64,000 nt of DNA. Origin: Clostridiales bacterium. Its GTDB lineage: Bacteria; Bacillota; Clostridia; Christensenellales; UBA1242. The translations under genes were made by a program, and so were the position numbers. The notes beneath the pieces are model-generated. The model saw only the letters and a list, made by a program, of their open reading frames with translations, searched no databases and was not told the DNA's origin. The DNA lies in assembly GCA_015069415.1 (NCBI GenBank), contig SVIQ01000001.1, forward strand, positions 11,860 through 75,859, given 5' to 3'. Below are positions 3,163 to 63,613 of this stretch, piece by piece. Numbering within the stretch: the first letter of the stretch is position 1; every line of letters starts with the position of its first letter.

Positions 3163-3179
3163 AATTTTGCATATTTTAG

Positions 3180-3208
3180 TTGACAAGTAAAAAACTTTGA
3201 CTTATAAT
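3180..3208 (+). promoter_or_regulatory. sigma-A type promoter of the ileS leader
   Basis: TTGACA (3180-3185), 17-nt spacer, TATAAT (3203-3208). Confidence 0.7.
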
Positions 3209-3215
3209 GAAAACA

Positions 3216-3278
3216 ATGTTAGAACTTATTTTAGCAATTATTATTATAGGACACATCGTTTTACCTATCAAGCTATAG
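3216..3278 (+). CDS. putative leaderless Ile-rich leader mini-ORF (MLELILAIIIIGHIVLPIKL)
   Basis: ATG lies 7 nt after the -10 hexamer and has no SD. 7 of 20 codons are Ile, including ATT ATT ATT ATA at 3237-3248. It is followed by the terminator at 3305-3332. Confidence 0.35.
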   Translation: MLELILAIIIIGHIVLPIKL

Positions 3279-3304
3279 GCATGCGTTTTGCTGTAATAAT
3301 AAAA

Positions 3305-3332
3305 ATGTCAGCACACGCGCTGACATTTTTTT
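3305..3332 (+). terminator. intrinsic terminator / attenuator between the ileS promoter and the ileS SD
   Basis: Stem ATGTCAGC/GCTGACAT (3305-3312 / 3319-3326) followed by a T7 run. The ileS SD AAGGAG is at 3348-3353. Confidence 0.8.
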
Positions 3333-3358
3333 AAAATAATTTTTAATAAGGAGAAATT

Positions 3359-6466: not shown

Positions 6467-6470
6467 TTGA

Positions 6471-6500
6471 AAAAATCGCAATAAAATGCGATTTTTTTTG
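6471..6500 (+). terminator. ileS terminator
   Basis: AATCGCA/TGCGATT hairpin followed by a T-run. Confidence 0.8.
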
Positions 6501-6570: not shown

Positions 6571-6597
6571 AAAAAAGAAGGAATTCCTTCTTTTTTT
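6571..6597. terminator. bidirectional hairpin; terminator of the 6604-7884 gene
   Basis: The palindrome AGAAGGAATTCCTTCT is flanked by an A-run and a T-run. Confidence 0.75.
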
Positions 6598-6603
6598 AGT
6601 ATT

Positions 6604-7884
6604 TTATGGTTTTGCTTCATTTTTCATTTCTTCGAAATAATCTCTCGCGATATATTGAGCCACTTCTAATATTTTTCTTACACTCAACGTTCCCATATAT
6701 TCAAGGTCTTTATTGTTTCTTCCATCGTAAAAATCAAATCCATCATTATGATTATAATAATATCTTCCATGCATTACAGAATTTCTTATTCTATTTATGT
6801 CAATACTAGGTTCATTAAATAAATTTTCTATGATATCCAATCTTTCAAAAGAGAACATTGAAAATAGTATGTTTGAAATTATTACAGTTTTAAATTTTCC
6901 TCCCAGATAAAAATATATTACATGTGTCATATCGTCGTTAGTAATGTCTGGAATATTTTTTGCCTCATCTATTATTGTTCTAAACAAATCCTCCAAACTT
7001 TTATATTTAGAACTTAAATTAATTAATGCTTTACCCGCATCAATTAAATCACACACAAGATTAAAGCAATTAAATTTATAAGGATATGACTTAAAAATAA
7101 AATTTGGCCTATATGGACTAGCCATACGTTTTCTTAAATCTTCATCGTGGAAAAATTTTCCTGCAAAAAAATGACTTAAAGTTTGTAATTGACGTTCGTC
7201 TAGATTTTCTTCATTCCCAGTTTCATTGTTTATTTCTTTAACATGCTTACTAATTTGTTCTGGAATAAGAACTCTTTGTTTTTTATTCTTTTGCTCAATC
7301 TTTATTCCATTAATCATTAAATCTGTAACGCAACCTTCTAAATCTGTCAGGTTACTCAAGCAAAGCATTATGAAAGCACTTAAATCTTCAAACCCAATTT
7401 TTATGTTATGTCTACTTGTAGATTTCCTAATTTGAGATTGAATATGAATGTTAAATTCTTCATCCATATACCAATTAGAAATAGTTTCTCTGTCGGTATT
7501 GTGCGCAAAGGACTCCCTAATTATTTTTAAGAGTTGCAAAGCATCTGTGTTTTTTTCAATTCCGTCTACATCAATTTTTGTCTTAATGCTTCTTAATTTG
7601 TTCTTTACTCTTTGAGAACTTGAATTTAGTCCAGCTTCTTCAACAATTTCATAAGCATAGCACGTTTGTTGCATCATAAAAGACAGTTGAGTATGTCTAA
7701 GAATATACTGTAATACCTGCTCTCTCGAAATATCCTCTGACGGCCATCGATTATACGATTGTAATGTGTCCTTCATTATTCTTAAAAAACTAATATGAGG
7801 TTGACTTTCCCATTCTTTAAAAGCTTTAAGAAATATAGTTTCCATTGATAAATTGTATCTATGAAAAAACTTTTTGTCTAACAT
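6604..7884 (-). CDS. hypothetical protein with two Rx4H (HEPN-like) motifs
   Basis: IIRESFAH (R123-H128, nt 7501-7518) and RIRNSVMHGR (R367-H372, nt 6769-6786). SD AGGAGG lies upstream, only 8 nt after the acpS stop. Otherwise helical and not recognisable. Confidence 0.5.
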   Translation of the reverse strand: MLDKKFFHRYNLSMETIFLKAFKEWESQPHISFLRIMKDTLQSYNRWPSEDISREQVLQYILRHTQLSFMMQQTCYAYEIVEEAGLNSSSQRVKNKLRSIKTKIDVDGIEKNTDALQLLKIIRESFAHNTDRETISNWYMDEEFNIHIQSQIRKSTSRHNIKIGFEDLSAFIMLCLSNLTDLEGCVTDLMINGIKIEQKNKKQRVLIPEQISKHVKEINNETGNEENLDERQLQTLSHFFAGKFFHDEDLRKRMASPYRPNFIFKSYPYKFNCFNLVCDLIDAGKALINLSSKYKSLEDLFRTIIDEAKNIPDITNDDMTHVIYFYLGGKFKTVIISNILFSMFSFERLDIIENLFNEPSIDINRIRNSVMHGRYYYNHNDGFDFYDGRNNKDLEYMGTLSVRKILEVAQYIARDYFEEMKNEAKP

Positions 7885-7892
7885 ATTTCCTC

Positions 7893-8237
7893 CTAATCTA
7901 TAAGCACAACCGCGGTTGCAAAATCTTTACAATGCGAAATTGAAACGTCAATTCTACTAACAAAATGTTCTTTTAAAATTGATTCAATGTATTTTGTTTT
8001 ATTTATATAAGGCTTTCCTGATTCTGTATGCAAAATTTCAATTTGGCTGTAAATAATATTTGTATCATCCAACGCTTTAACAAAAGCCTCTTTAGCACAA
8101 AAGAATCCGCAAATTCTTTCACTTTTATTTTCAAATTGATTGATATATTCAATCTCATTTTCACTAAAAATTCTTTTCAGTCCCTCTTCAGTCCAATGAT
8201 CAAATCTTGAAATATTTTCAATGTCAATTCCTATCAT
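7893..8237 (-). CDS. acpS: holo-[acyl-carrier-protein] synthase
   Basis: 114 aa, with N-terminal IGIDIENISRF, FCAKEAFVKAL and SISHCKDFATAVV. Confidence 0.85.
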   Translation of the reverse strand: MIGIDIENISRFDHWTEEGLKRIFSENEIEYINQFENKSERICGFFCAKEAFVKALDDTNIIYSQIEILHTESGKPYINKTKYIESILKEHFVSRIDVSISHCKDFATAVVLID

Positions 8238-8238
8238 T

Positions 8239-8847
8239 TTAATCTTCCTCCGTTTCTAAGTTAAGCAAATTTAATGTGTGTTTTACCGTGTCCCATCTGT
8301 AACCCATAGACAAAAGTCTACGAATTAATTTGTCGCAATTTTCTTTTGTTTTTTCTTTGTTTTTGAAAAACTTTCTTGCGTTGTTAAGACAACTTTCATC
8401 ATCATCAATTCCTTCCACACTTTCATCTAAAGTGTCGCCCTTAACACCAAATGACGCAAGCTTTTGCTTAACTTTGTTTTTACTAAAATTTGGATTGCTT
8501 CTGACATACATATCACTAAAGATTTTATCGTTAATAATACCATAATCTTTTAACTTAAAAACAACCTCATCTATTGTATCTTTTTTAAATTCTTTTTTGT
8601 AAAGATAATCTTTGATTTGTTTTTCAGTTTTTACATTCGAATTTATGTATTTTAAAGCCATGTTGTAAGCAATTAAATTTTCACTTTCCTTAACACTTTT
8701 AAAAAATAAATCGTCATCAATTTCACCTACTGACAATCCATTTTTTACGATTATATCACTAGCTAAAAGGTATTCTTCATCATTAGTTACAGCCACAAAA
8801 ACATTTGCATTTCTTTTGCTTTTTAATTTTAATCCTAAAATTTCCAT
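8239..8847 (-). CDS. recX: RecX-family regulatory protein
   Basis: About 200 aa with repeated three-helix RecX-like segments (KDYLYKKEF..IDEVVFKLKDYGIINDKIFSDMYVRS ... LIRRLLSMGYRWDTV). Confidence 0.65.
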   Translation of the reverse strand: MEILGLKLKSKRNANVFVAVTNDEEYLLASDIIVKNGLSVGEIDDDLFFKSVKESENLIAYNMALKYINSNVKTEKQIKDYLYKKEFKKDTIDEVVFKLKDYGIINDKIFSDMYVRSNPNFSKNKVKQKLASFGVKGDTLDESVEGIDDDESCLNNARKFFKNKEKTKENCDKLIRRLLSMGYRWDTVKHTLNLLNLETEED

Positions 8848-8888
8848 AAGCTTATTATATCATAATTTTATTTCTTTAACAATATTTT

Positions 8889-10200
8889 TTAATTAAATTT
8901 TTTGTTTGCTAAATTTGAATTGTAAAATTCTTCTTCTCCAGTGATTTCTTTAATAATTTTAAAAAATTTTGGAAATTCAATTTTTTGATTTTCGTTGGAG
9001 AGTTCAATTTCTAAAATTGCTTTATCCTTCCAAAAAGGATAAATATCAATTTCAAAATACTGGTTATTATGCATTAAACAATATCTTGTTTTTCTAATAG
9101 GATGTTTAGCAGTATCCGACTCTAGCAAAAGATTTAAATACTCTTCTTTAGTAATTCTACTTTCTGTTTCATATCTTTTTGTGTCGCTAATTTTTCTCTT
9201 TACTGTTTTTGTGTAAGTGTGATATCCGTTTTTACCCCTTTGACGAATTCTAATTTCTTCATCTCCAGATTTTAAATACGTTTGAATAATCTCAACCTTT
9301 TCACAGTTCTGTAGCTTTTCTAAGTAGTCAATGTCTGGATATTCAATCAAAAATTTTCTTTCGATTTCACAAGGCTCATCCTCTCCAAGCACATGTGAAA
9401 TTTCCGACATTAATCTTCTCATCTTATTTTCAAAATCTGTTGAATTGTCTATTACTCTTAAATGCGGATGCCCCATCCAAGCACGCAATGTTTCATCATC
9501 TTTTCTTTCAGCCTCTTCGACATTTTCACGTCTAGCCTTGTTGTTTTCTTTTGTGTAAATTTCCTTAGCATCTTTAGCTACAGACACAAGATGGAAAACA
9601 GCATCATACTTATCTCTTAACTCAATCTCATTTTTGTTGAGTTTTTTCAATGCATTGTTAAATTCCAATTCTGTCATGTAAGCTTTGCAATCTATTACTC
9701 CTCTATCGTAAACAATCAAAACTTTGTCATAATCTTTCACATGTTTAGCTGACTCTTCGTAAATCTTTTCTTTTTCAAGTTGAAGTTTTACGATAGCATC
9801 TTGAAAGTTTTGATTAGTGTCGATTGTGTATGGTGACACTCCACCAAGAATTAACTCTGATGCCGTTTCAGAAACAAACATAACCATATACCCACGCTTT
9901 GTGAATTCTTTTTGAATCCAACTCATTGCGGTAGATTTTCCCAGAACATGGCCCTCCAGTTATAGCAATTTTGTAGATTTTCTTGTTATTATCCTTATTT
10001 AATGGGACTAATTCGTCCAATGTAACATTGAAAATTTTAGTAAGTTCTAACAATGTTTTTAAAGAAGGTTCTGCCTTAGCATTTTCCCATTTTGATATTG
10101 TTTTGTTAGTTACAAACAATTTTTCAGCCAGTTCTGATTGCGTTAGCCCTTGAGACACTCTTAATTCGTAAAGTTTTCTAGAAAAATCAAATTCTTTCAT
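8889..10200 (-). pseudogene. frameshifted gene: XRE-type HTH + P-loop (AAA_28/NadR-kinase-like) NTPase + CYTH domain
   Basis: ORF 9868-10200 ends ITGGPCSGK and then goes out of frame. Removing one A from the A4 run (rc of 9936-9939) gives GGPCSGKSTAMSWIQKEF..., joining it to ORF 8889-9926. The CYTH ExExK motif reads EIERKFLI. Confidence 0.75.
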
Positions 10201-12298: not shown

Positions 12299-12391
12299 TT
12301 AAAAAGTGATAATTTAATAAAAATTTTCAAATTTTGGGTTACTTTTCTTAAAGTTTTGAATATTTTATTAAAATATTTTAAAAAATGGGTA

Positions 12392-12420
12392 TTGACAAAT
12401 TGGAAGTTTCAGTTTATACT
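12392..12420 (+). promoter_or_regulatory. sigma-A type promoter
   Basis: TTGACA, 17 nt, TATACT. Confidence 0.6.
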
Positions 12421-12456
12421 TACAAGACCAAAAGAAAATGGTCACAGGGAGGGTTT

Positions 12457-14118
12457 ATGGCCACAAAAAAATTTACAGAAGCAGAAATTAATGAATTAAT
12501 TACATATATTGAAAATTTAAGAGATGGTAAAATTTCTACAATCGATGGTATGCCTAACGAAGATATTATTGCATTGAACAAGAAAATCATCTCCCTTCTT
12601 TCTCACAAAAATGATGCAAACAACAATCTTAGAATTCGTAAATTACACACCAAGAGAGATTGGTTGCTTAAGAAAGGTTCTTTATTCTCTGTTTTAGGAT
12701 TCTCAGCTTTTATGGGAGCAACAGGACTCACAGCTGGACTTATTGAAGGAGCAAGTGCAGGAATTGTTTCAACTAGTACATTTGCAACTGCTATGAACTT
12801 AGGTGGAATCGCTGCCGGAGCATCTTTACTCGCTTCAATTGGCTACATTCAAGCAAAAAAATTAATTACAAGAGCTTACTACAAATCTAAATTTAAAACT
12901 AAAGATAAAGACTTATTAGATGAAACTGCTGAGTTTGGATTAACAAAAGCATTTACAAAAGGAAAAAATAAAGGAAAATCTTTAATTGACCTCATTAAAG
13001 AAACAGATGCTGAAATTCGCAAAACTAAAGAAAGTATGACTTCTGCCAATTTCTTTAAGAAAATTGGTTTGTTTGCAAAAATGACTTATCTTAACATTAA
13101 AAACAGAAATAGATTGCATTTTGTCATGGATGAGCAAGCAAGAATTGATGCACTTTTAAAGAAGTATCCTGAAAATTCTTCATTACTTGCTAAAAAGGAA
13201 GTTATAACTGACTACGAAAGAGATTTCATATTTGACGAATTGATTTCAGCTTTAAAAACTAAAAAATTCGAAAACTTAGACATTTTAACTCGTGGTTTAG
13301 ATTTGTCTGACATTAAAGAACTTTTATCTAAATATGAACTTACTAGTACAAAAACAGAAAAAGGAAAAGGATTACTTCTCAAGACTTTAGAAAGAAGTAT
13401 TGCTAGAACTGAATCTATTGCCCCAGTTGTTATTCCAGGTCCAGACGTTCATAAGTTTAAACGTAGAACAGAAATTGTTCCAGATCTAGTTGACCCAGAT
13501 TCAGACAAGAAACCAGACACTGATCCAAAACCTGAAGACAAACCTGAAAAGAAGCCTGAAGATAAACCAGCAGTTATTGAAACATTTGGAAAAGACGATT
13601 ACGTTACTTATATAATTCGTGACGGAGAATCAGTTGAAACTGTCTGCACTTTCTACTGCAGAAAAAATATAAAAGGACAATTTAACCTTTTCGATATTCA
13701 AATTGACCCAGCTACAAATTCAGCTTCTTACAATGGTAGACCATGTGTAATCATCGCAGACAATATTAGAAAAAAAGCAACAATTCAATTTGCAGATGGT
13801 TCAACTGAAACTATTATTAGTCAAGCAATCAAAACAACAATTGATGGCGTTGTAAAACAATTAGAATTCTTAACAACAAAACCTCAATTGTTTGCTAAAG
13901 CTAAAAGATCAAGATTTTTGAAAAAAGGTGTAGAACCACAAGGAATTTACTCAGACAAAACAATTGAATCTTTAATCAGTGCTTACTATGATTCAATTAT
14001 GTCAGTATCTAATCCACAAGTAACTGGAGCCGTTAAAAACCTTCACTTTGATGTTCAAAGAGCAATTGACGAAGTACATCTTACTGGTCCAAAAACTCCA
14101 GAAAGTTCTACAACTTAA
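12457..14118 (+). CDS. hypothetical membrane protein with Pro/Lys/Asp-rich linker
   Basis: ATG at 12457 follows GGGAGGG and lies downstream of the promoter, so the track start at 12385 is upstream of the predicted TSS. There is a Gly/Ala-rich TM block and a KKPDTDPKPEDKPEKKPEDKP linker. Confidence 0.6.
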   Translation: MATKKFTEAEINELITYIENLRDGKISTIDGMPNEDIIALNKKIISLLSHKNDANNNLRIRKLHTKRDWLLKKGSLFSVLGFSAFMGATGLTAGLIEGASAGIVSTSTFATAMNLGGIAAGASLLASIGYIQAKKLITRAYYKSKFKTKDKDLLDETAEFGLTKAFTKGKNKGKSLIDLIKETDAEIRKTKESMTSANFFKKIGLFAKMTYLNIKNRNRLHFVMDEQARIDALLKKYPENSSLLAKKEVITDYERDFIFDELISALKTKKFENLDILTRGLDLSDIKELLSKYELTSTKTEKGKGLLLKTLERSIARTESIAPVVIPGPDVHKFKRRTEIVPDLVDPDSDKKPDTDPKPEDKPEKKPEDKPAVIETFGKDDYVTYIIRDGESVETVCTFYCRKNIKGQFNLFDIQIDPATNSASYNGRPCVIIADNIRKKATIQFADGSTETIISQAIKTTIDGVVKQLEFLTTKPQLFAKAKRSRFLKKGVEPQGIYSDKTIESLISAYYDSIMSVSNPQVTGAVKNLHFDVQRAIDEVHLTGPKTPESSTT

Positions 14119-63346: not shown

Positions 63347-63613
63347 TTACTTTTTAGTTGTCTTCTTAGCAGGAGCTGTCGCAACTGACTTCTTAGCTAC
63401 TGTTTTAGCAGGAGCTTTTGCTGTTGTTTTTGCAACTGTTTTACTAACTGTTTTTGTAGCAGTTTTCTTCGCTGTAGCTTTTACTTCTTTTTTTGGCAAT
63501 GGATTCAATTTATTATACTCATTAACCAACTCTTTACATTTTGACTCTAATTCTTGTAAAGCTTCGAACATTTCGTTAATTATGTCTTTTGATTTTTCTT
63601 TTTTCATAATCAT
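63347..63613 (-). CDS. small protein with coiled N-terminal half and Lys/Ala/Thr-rich basic tail
   Basis: The tail KKEVKATAKKTATKTVSKTVAKTTAKAPAKTVAKKSVATAPAKKTTKK has histone-H1-like composition. Confidence 0.5.
   Translation of the reverse strand: MIMKKEKSKDIINEMFEALQELESKCKELVNEYNKLNPLPKKEVKATAKKTATKTVSKTVAKTTAKAPAKTVAKKSVATAPAKKTTKK

Follow-up and report, generated by a model that had tools for sequence, protein, structure and literature searches.

We have combined profile comparisons, structure prediction and an analysis of gene neighbourhoods to study a gene, here called X, in a 64 kb stretch of contig SVIQ01000001.1 of a Clostridiales bacterium (the window, in what follows). The product of X is recorded at NCBI as a hypothetical protein (MBE7076286.1). 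Our results show that X is, by profile comparison and predicted structure, a tandem of two diverged HEPN domains of the pEK499_p136 type joined by a linker of about 80 residues. From this architecture we infer a site, an activity and a role: X is probably a single-chain HEPN endoribonuclease, an intramolecular pseudo-dimer with one composite site. A sequence-only reading of the same DNA had already proposed two HEPN domains in one chain, a proposal that the invariant motifs, the in-register alignments of both halves and the clean reversed controls described below bear out. Its interpretation as a whole is partly supported.

Each half of X carries one Rx4H motif, and residue arithmetic places both exactly where the sequence-only reading had put them. 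By itself the motif pair is not significant: 0.67 Rx4H motifs are expected by chance in a protein of this kind, at least two occur in 14% of X shuffles, and X even has a third (R374-H379). The pair becomes significant because both motifs are invariant among the relatives of X. A word-indexed search gave 13 relatives. When 1.84 billion cluster representatives were scanned exhaustively with HMMER, there were 68 matches, nearly all of 370–450 amino acids (aa) and aligned with X from end to end. In the alignment of the 62 full-length sequences, which are 16–59% identical to X and have a mean column identity of 24%, the only invariant residues are R123, H128, R367, N368, H372 and D387. The earlier reading had made conservation of the motif residues among homologues its own test, and R123, H128, R367 and H372 are all in this set. 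Another six positions are conserved in at least 90% of the sequences (N129, Q232, P268, G373, Y386 and L394), with N129 and G373, the residues that follow the two motifs, at 98%. Both motifs are also kept in 21 of 21 family copies from the window and from the related loci fetched for comparison (17 loci, numbered L001, L002 and so on), including three divergent paralogues of 377–379 aa in L001–L003. The two motifs differ in form, RxxxAHN for motif 1 and RNxxxHG for motif 2, each with its own invariant flanking residue, and this asymmetry fits a fixed heterotypic pair of domains. The same conservation bears on the idea that X is an inactive HEPN-like scaffold used for binding or dimerization only, as described for the HEPN domain of AbiA, which is enzymatically inactive and serves dimerization (review PMC13064643). 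No structural match confirms the active-site geometry of X, as such a scaffold would allow; however, the catalytic arginine and histidine of both motifs, together with N368, have stayed invariant through this divergence, and we regard the scaffold as very unlikely.

The assignment of the two halves comes from profile comparisons. The sequence-only reading held that the rest of the protein matched nothing; this has to be amended, since Pfam PF18736 (HEPN pEK499_p136) matches residues 363–422 of X with 23.3 bits, just below the gathering threshold of 26.6. The same model is matched by 15 of the 62 family members (best E 1.8e-7), while two members match RiboL-PSP-HEPN and one the MAE_28990 HEPN family, and some relatives show weak matches to HEPN-bearing PADLOC models (CARF_HEPN, RTasHEPN, Csx1, Cas13a and Cas13c); we take all of these as evidence for a HEPN domain in the C-terminal half. 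We built a profile of 96 sequences around the pEK499_p136 prototype, a 166-aa 'HEPN family nuclease' of the Escherichia coli plasmid pEK499 (WP_000528932.1), and aligned it profile to profile with each half of X by hhalign. The N-terminal half (residues 1–205) matched the family with a probability of 90.4% (E 1.4e-6) over 139 columns, covering positions 14–153 of the 166, and the C-terminal half (225–426) with 52% (E 1.4e-4) over 100 columns; the two halves matched each other with 59% (E 9.4e-5) over 143 columns. In all three comparisons the Rx4H motifs fall in register, as do the stretches that follow them, so that the LRNSVAH of the family aligns with the IRESFAHN of the N-terminal half. Controls with reversed sequences gave P 0.18–0.59, with 0.59 for the comparison of the N-terminal half with the pEK499_p136 family. 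By profile comparison, then, X is significantly similar to a curated HEPN family. The N-terminal half is nearer to pEK499_p136 than to the C-terminal half, and the tandem may be the product either of a duplication or of two related genes that fused.

The predicted structure agrees with this assignment. An AlphaFold2 model made from the alignment of 13 sequences reached a predicted local distance difference test score of 86 and a predicted template modelling score (pTM) of 0.88. Its N-terminal half has helices at residues 4–27, 33–43, 54–86, 91–99 and 115–127, followed by three strands and a helix at 165–179; in the C-terminal half, a helix at 363–372 that ends in the motif is followed by three strands and a long helix at 402–423. 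In the model of a pEK499_p136 homologue, P0081, helix 88–100 carries R96 and H101 and is followed by three strands and a helix at 135–161. Both halves of X and P0081 thus have the same predicted order: an Rx4H motif closing a helix, then three strands, then a long helix. In HEPN domains the Rx4-6H motif closes helix-3, where the chain passes into the loop to helix-4 (PMC3710099), and on predicted secondary structure both motifs of X are so placed. The high pTM indicates that the two domains would form one compact body.

We propose that the two HEPN domains of X pack against each other as an intramolecular pseudo-dimer, in which R123 and H128 (with N129) from one domain and R367, N368 and H372 from the other would form one composite, metal-independent endoribonuclease site. 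Such a site would follow the model of HEPN homodimers, which build it between two chains, and of Cas13, which builds it within one; in solved HEPN sites the catalytic histidines lie about 8 Å apart (DARNA preprint). Each domain might instead pair with its counterpart in a second chain, head to head or domain-swapped, and the active homodimer or oligomer would then contain two canonical sites, separate from each other. The characterized single-protein HEPN defence enzymes ApeA, DARNA and AbiF all dimerize or oligomerize, and invariance of both motifs is expected under this arrangement too. Against it stand the pTM of the monomer model, with its compact two-domain body, and the asymmetry of the motifs, as expected for a heterotypic pair, and we consider pairing between chains unlikely.

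Several results weigh against our reading of X as a single-chain HEPN nuclease, or against parts of it. X itself stays under the gathering score of PF18736, its N-terminal half alone has no Pfam match, and the hhalign probabilities for the C-terminal half and for the two halves against each other are only 52–59%. Foldseek searches with the full X model against PDB and BFVD, and with the pEK499_p136 model against PDB, returned nothing below E 1e-3, the best-ranked matches, with TM scores of about 0.1–0.2, being to PH-like folds or to long proteins made of helices; because there is no significant Foldseek match, membership in the HEPN fold rests on sequence profiles and topology. A search of PDB chain sequences with X, with its family profile and with pEK499_p136 gave only noise, and no solved structure matching the prototype. 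The literature search gave no biochemical data on any pEK499_p136-type protein, a single paper of the library covered naming the family at all. As to the role, X has no defence-island context and no PADLOC membership, and a housekeeping RNase would explain its stable place among the housekeeping genes of an operon just as well.

Table 1. Positions of gene X, of the predicted parts of its product and of the adjoining genes and signals in the window (1-based).
Feature	Position	Strand	Basis
Gene X, tandem-HEPN protein, 426 aa	6604..7884	-	ORF list, ATG start; 62 full-length relatives
Predicted N-terminal pEK499_p136-like HEPN domain, ~residues 1–185	7330..7884	-	hhalign and AlphaFold2
Predicted inter-domain alpha/beta linker, ~residues 186–264 (~80 residues), conserved D229 and Q232	7093..7329	-	outside the hhalign match between the two halves; AlphaFold2
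Predicted C-terminal pEK499_p136-like HEPN domain, ~residues 265–426	6607..7092	-	Pfam PF18736 and hhalign
HEPN motif 1, R123-E-S-F-A-H128, then N129	7501..7518	-	C-terminal end of helix 115–127 (AlphaFold2)
HEPN motif 2, R367-N-S-V-M-H372, then G373-R374	6769..6786	-	end of helix 363–372 (AlphaFold2)
Shine-Dalgarno sequence AGGAGG	7889..7894	-	sequence reading; overlaps the acpS stop codon, 4 nt 5' of the ATG
Bidirectional intrinsic-terminator-like hairpin	6571..6596	both	palindrome, T-runs on both strands, directly 3' of the X stop
acpS	7893-8237	-	Pfam ACPS; directly upstream of X
recX	8239-8847	-	Pfam RecX_HTH1; upstream of acpS and X
Promoter-like site TTGTTA, 17-nt spacer, TG-TATAAT	8854..8882	-	consensus match only; in the 41-nt spacer upstream of recX

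The gene itself and its signals (Table 1) are as the sequence-only reading had described them: the open reading frame (ORF) is real and begins with ATG, it has its own Shine-Dalgarno sequence at the end of acpS, and it ends at a hairpin with T-runs on both strands. Eight nucleotides separate the acpS stop codon (TAG, 7893–7895) from the ATG of X, and recX, acpS and X probably form an operon. The 137-nt spacer between X and the convergent ileS holds only two terminator hairpins, the second of them (6469–6498) lying 3' of ileS, and AT-rich filler. Terminator-like sites are more numerous than expected (4 found, 0.9 expected), and promoter-like sites in the region are not above shuffled expectation. 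The GC content of X (0.286) is that of acpS (0.284), and recX likewise has the same GC as X.

X is a conserved, syntenic chromosomal gene, and its setting persists at identities as low as 37%. L001 and L002, where X is 45% identical, and L015 (37%) all have the block enolase-cmk / recX-acpS-X / ileS-UDG, and the same block with small insertions is found in L003 and L016; the order recX-acpS-X itself is kept in L001, L002, L015 and L016. The sequence-only reading had described X as inserted behind acpS, and the order recX-acpS-X-ileS, conserved to this depth, together with the native GC, does not support that description; a recent horizontal insertion was likewise rejected on synteny and on GC matching the neighbours. 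In a deeper branch (Candidatus Onthoplasma and 'Clostridia' metagenome-assembled genomes) the order is secA-X-(108–110 aa ORF)-tdk-rubrerythrin, and other members of the family follow thyX or a methyltransferase gene, or lie beside SPFH/NfeD genes. The GC content of all loci is 27–35%. We suggest that recX, acpS and X are transcribed together, and that X may be a fixed chromosomal gene in one clade of uncultured low-GC gut Bacillota.

Within this stable frame X changes quickly. No other annotated gene of the block evolves as fast: X stands at 37–45% identity vs 57% for ileS, 69–73% for acpS, 78% for enolase and 80% for UDG. Extra copies also occur at the locus, namely a paralogue of 377–379 aa upstream of recX in L001–L003 and a second copy of 428 aa in L016, and they represent a lineage-specific expansion around recX-acpS. 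These copies (L001 5823–6962, L002 1669–2808, L003 4648–5781 and L016 5383–6669) are 22–31% identical to X, keep both Rx4H motifs, and stand upstream of recX or after an insertion of CitMHS and HD genes. A CitMHS transporter gene, with an HD-domain gene in L016, is inserted in the acpS-X region of L003 (6808–7944) and L016 (3574–5295), so the operon junction tolerates insertions.

What could be the role of such an enzyme in vivo? The same enzyme could serve as a lineage-specific endoribonuclease of RNA processing or decay, expressed constitutively from the recX-acpS operon, with a specificity so narrow that no antitoxin is needed. In favour of this are the order beside core genes kept to 37% identity, the other housekeeping contexts (secA-X-tdk, thyX-X and methyltransferase-X), the native GC, and the lack of any mobile-element, phage, plasmid or defence association or of a conserved partner gene among the loci compared; there is also a precedent in Las1, reported to be an essential eukaryotic HEPN endoribonuclease. 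On the other hand, X evolves faster than any other annotated gene of the block, each locus has one to two copies with deep paralogues, and the family is small, with 68 clusters among the 1.84 billion representatives. This combination of rate, copy number and family size is more in keeping with a conflict gene than with an essential RNase, and we find the housekeeping function the less likely of the two, although the synteny makes it a serious alternative. The rate of X relative to its neighbours, together with its local paralogues, favours a role in conflict or stress, and by analogy with ApeA and DARNA we lean slightly towards a stand-alone immune, abortive-infection or stress RNase rather than a housekeeping enzyme. 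Since neither a protein nor an RNA antitoxin accompanies it, X would be narrowly specific or latent until triggered. The abortive-infection role suggested by the sequence-only reading is only one of two viable options: the rapid evolution and the local paralogues lean to conflict, but an association with defence islands, phages or plasmids was not found.

X has no MNT or antitoxin-like neighbour in the window, as that reading had also noted, and no defence gene lies next to it; over the whole window there are no CRISPR-like direct repeats. Across the 17 related loci there is no partner gene common to all contexts, and no MNT, antitoxin or defence neighbour. A conserved small partner gene was considered and dropped. 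Small ORFs do lie directly downstream of some X homologues (L001 9315–9764, 149 aa; L006 9334–9660, 108 aa; L005 9307–9633), none with a Pfam match; in the window that place is without an ORF. An antitoxin made of RNA was sought as well. In an arrangement like that of AbiF or of type III toxin-antitoxin systems, a small RNA encoded in cis would neutralize the HEPN toxin; AbiF is curbed by such a non-coding RNA and has been proposed as the precursor of Cas13 (PMC12737573), and X, too, has no protein antitoxin. The space for an RNA of this kind is small, however, with the 8-nt gap on the acpS side and the hairpins and AT-rich filler of the spacer on the ileS side, and the downstream space varies among orthologues, L001 having its 149-aa ORF there. 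Searches for a ToxI/AbiFr-like RNA antitoxin or a CRISPR array by TRF, Rfam and direct repeats gave neither a tandem repeat array nor a known RNA family near X, and no Abi_2 match was found by Pfam in X or its relatives. We consider this arrangement scarcely plausible.

The family of X has so far gone unannotated: X has no NCBIfam or PADLOC model and lies under the Pfam threshold, and PHROGs gave no meaningful match. Scans of phage, plasmid and IMG/VR sequences gave no relatives. Scanning genomes with the alignment of 13 sequences gave just five species representatives, in a search that was pattern-limited, and two metagenome contig scans gave no match, though JGI contigs with the gene exist, which reflects a limit of the collection or of the pattern and not absence. 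Among the HMMER matches a few are short (90–167 aa); they were considered as stand-alone single-domain ancestors, an idea that was dropped, and are read as C-terminal fragments of full-length members.

Some features of the surroundings deserve mention in their own right. Upstream of recX, on the minus strand (8889–10200), one gene is apparently split by a frameshift. The ORF at 9868–10200 encodes an XRE-type helix-turn-helix (HTH_3) and ends in a Walker-A-like ITGGPCSGK, and the ORF at 8889–9926, which overlaps it, has an AAA_28 match starting only at model position 15 and a C-terminal part that is CYTH-like by eye, for which Pfam gave no CYTH domain. Either this is a pseudogene or the assembly is in error here; in L001–L003 the X paralogue takes the position of the split gene. 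Between cmk and rubrerythrin, a 577-aa ORF (12385–14118, plus strand) has no Pfam match. Its counterparts are only 26–30% identical (620 aa in L001, 698 aa in L003), so it diverges faster than X; in L015 a 749-aa gene stands there. T-box leaders are common in front of ileS in Bacillota; Rfam models at their gathering thresholds, the T-box included, matched nothing in the 196-nt ileS leader of the window (3163–3358). The full 64 kb yielded no more than three tRNAs. Finally, two imperfect 34-nt direct repeats, 39 nt apart, lie at 63349–63421; they are one of only two direct-repeat families window-wide and probably lie inside repetitive coding sequence. In Bacillus subtilis the MazF/EndoA RNase toxin is encoded a few genes downstream of acpS, a positional parallel to X that we mention as speculation and not as evidence.

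HEPN RNases normally need two chains for each active site, and Cas13 is the only well-known case in which one polypeptide suffices. If our reading of X is correct, this family would be a second, unrelated single-chain solution, a convergent architecture in a protein about half the size of the smallest Cas13. It would offer a minimal scaffold for the study of gating in HEPN sites that have no partner, and perhaps a small RNase module for use in engineering. Tentatively, and with some doubt, we suggest that X represents an origin of the intramolecular HEPN pseudo-dimer independent of Cas13. A compact monomer of 426 aa, its one composite RNase site made jointly by two fused or duplicated pEK499_p136-type domains, would be fixed in the core chromosome of one clade of gut Bacillota and would work without antitoxin or guide RNA. 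X would then be a self-contained immune sensor-nuclease of a new type, or else a HEPN RNase with a housekeeping task in bacteria, the latter, to our knowledge, without precedent. The placement of X is unusual for a HEPN protein, as it is stably syntenic in a housekeeping operon and has no antitoxin, yet evolves fast and forms paralogues; this placement makes the family one in which the question of housekeeping as against conflict-only use of HEPN domains in bacteria becomes directly testable.

Among characterized HEPN systems, X shares with the type II/VII HEPN-MNT modules (HepT/MntA) an Rx4H HEPN nuclease, but it has no adjacent MNT gene or small partner, in the window or conserved over the related loci. 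With AbiF/AbiD (Abi_2) it has in common a HEPN RNase that works without a protein antitoxin (PMC12737573); AbiF, in contrast, is a symmetric homodimer neutralized by a non-coding RNA encoded in cis, whereas the neighbourhood of X yielded neither such an RNA nor a repeat. ApeA and DARNA (PD-T7-3) are closer in organization, since they are stand-alone proteins of about 450–600 aa with an Rx4H RNase domain, have no antitoxin and are latent until triggered; the motif of DARNA (R117/H122) even lies at a position similar to R123/H128 of X. They differ in combining one HEPN domain with a non-catalytic sensor domain and in forming homodimers or dodecamers, while X has two motif-bearing domains, and their PADLOC models match neither X nor its 61 relatives.

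Like X, Cas13 has two Rx4H HEPN motifs per polypeptide; those of Cas13 combine within the molecule into a composite RNase site (ApeA preprint). X, however, has no lobe for recognition of the CRISPR RNA and no CRISPR-like repeats anywhere in its window. Profile matches of the family to Cas13 are restricted to one of 62 relatives for Cas13c (E 0.0045) and one of 62 for Cas13a (E 0.029), with none for X. The HEPN clades are also different, pEK499_p136-like in X and traced to AbiF in Cas13 (PMC12737573), and because of this difference the resemblance between the two would be convergent. In the literature we found no single chain with two HEPN domains described besides Cas13, and the 2013 census of HEPN proteins describes no tandem-HEPN protein.

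The nearest known relatives of X are thus the pEK499_p136 proteins (PF18736), to which both halves align profile to profile with Rx4H in register, with the motif LRNSVAH of that family set against IRNSVMHG and IRESFAHN in X, and with which they share the predicted order of elements around the motif (Rx4H at the end of a helix, then three strands, then a long helix). The pEK499_p136 proteins are single domains of about 160 aa (most of the members retrieved have 150–170 aa), while the X family, at about 370–450 aa, has two domains and a linker. They occur in Proteobacteria and Bacteroidota, often on plasmids, and their reported neighbours are restriction-modification, Pgl, ART/Macro and NamA genes; X, in contrast, is chromosomal, in housekeeping operons of low-GC Bacillota. 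The single-domain HEPN kind was already known, and what is new in X is the presence of two domains of the pEK499_p136 type in one chain.

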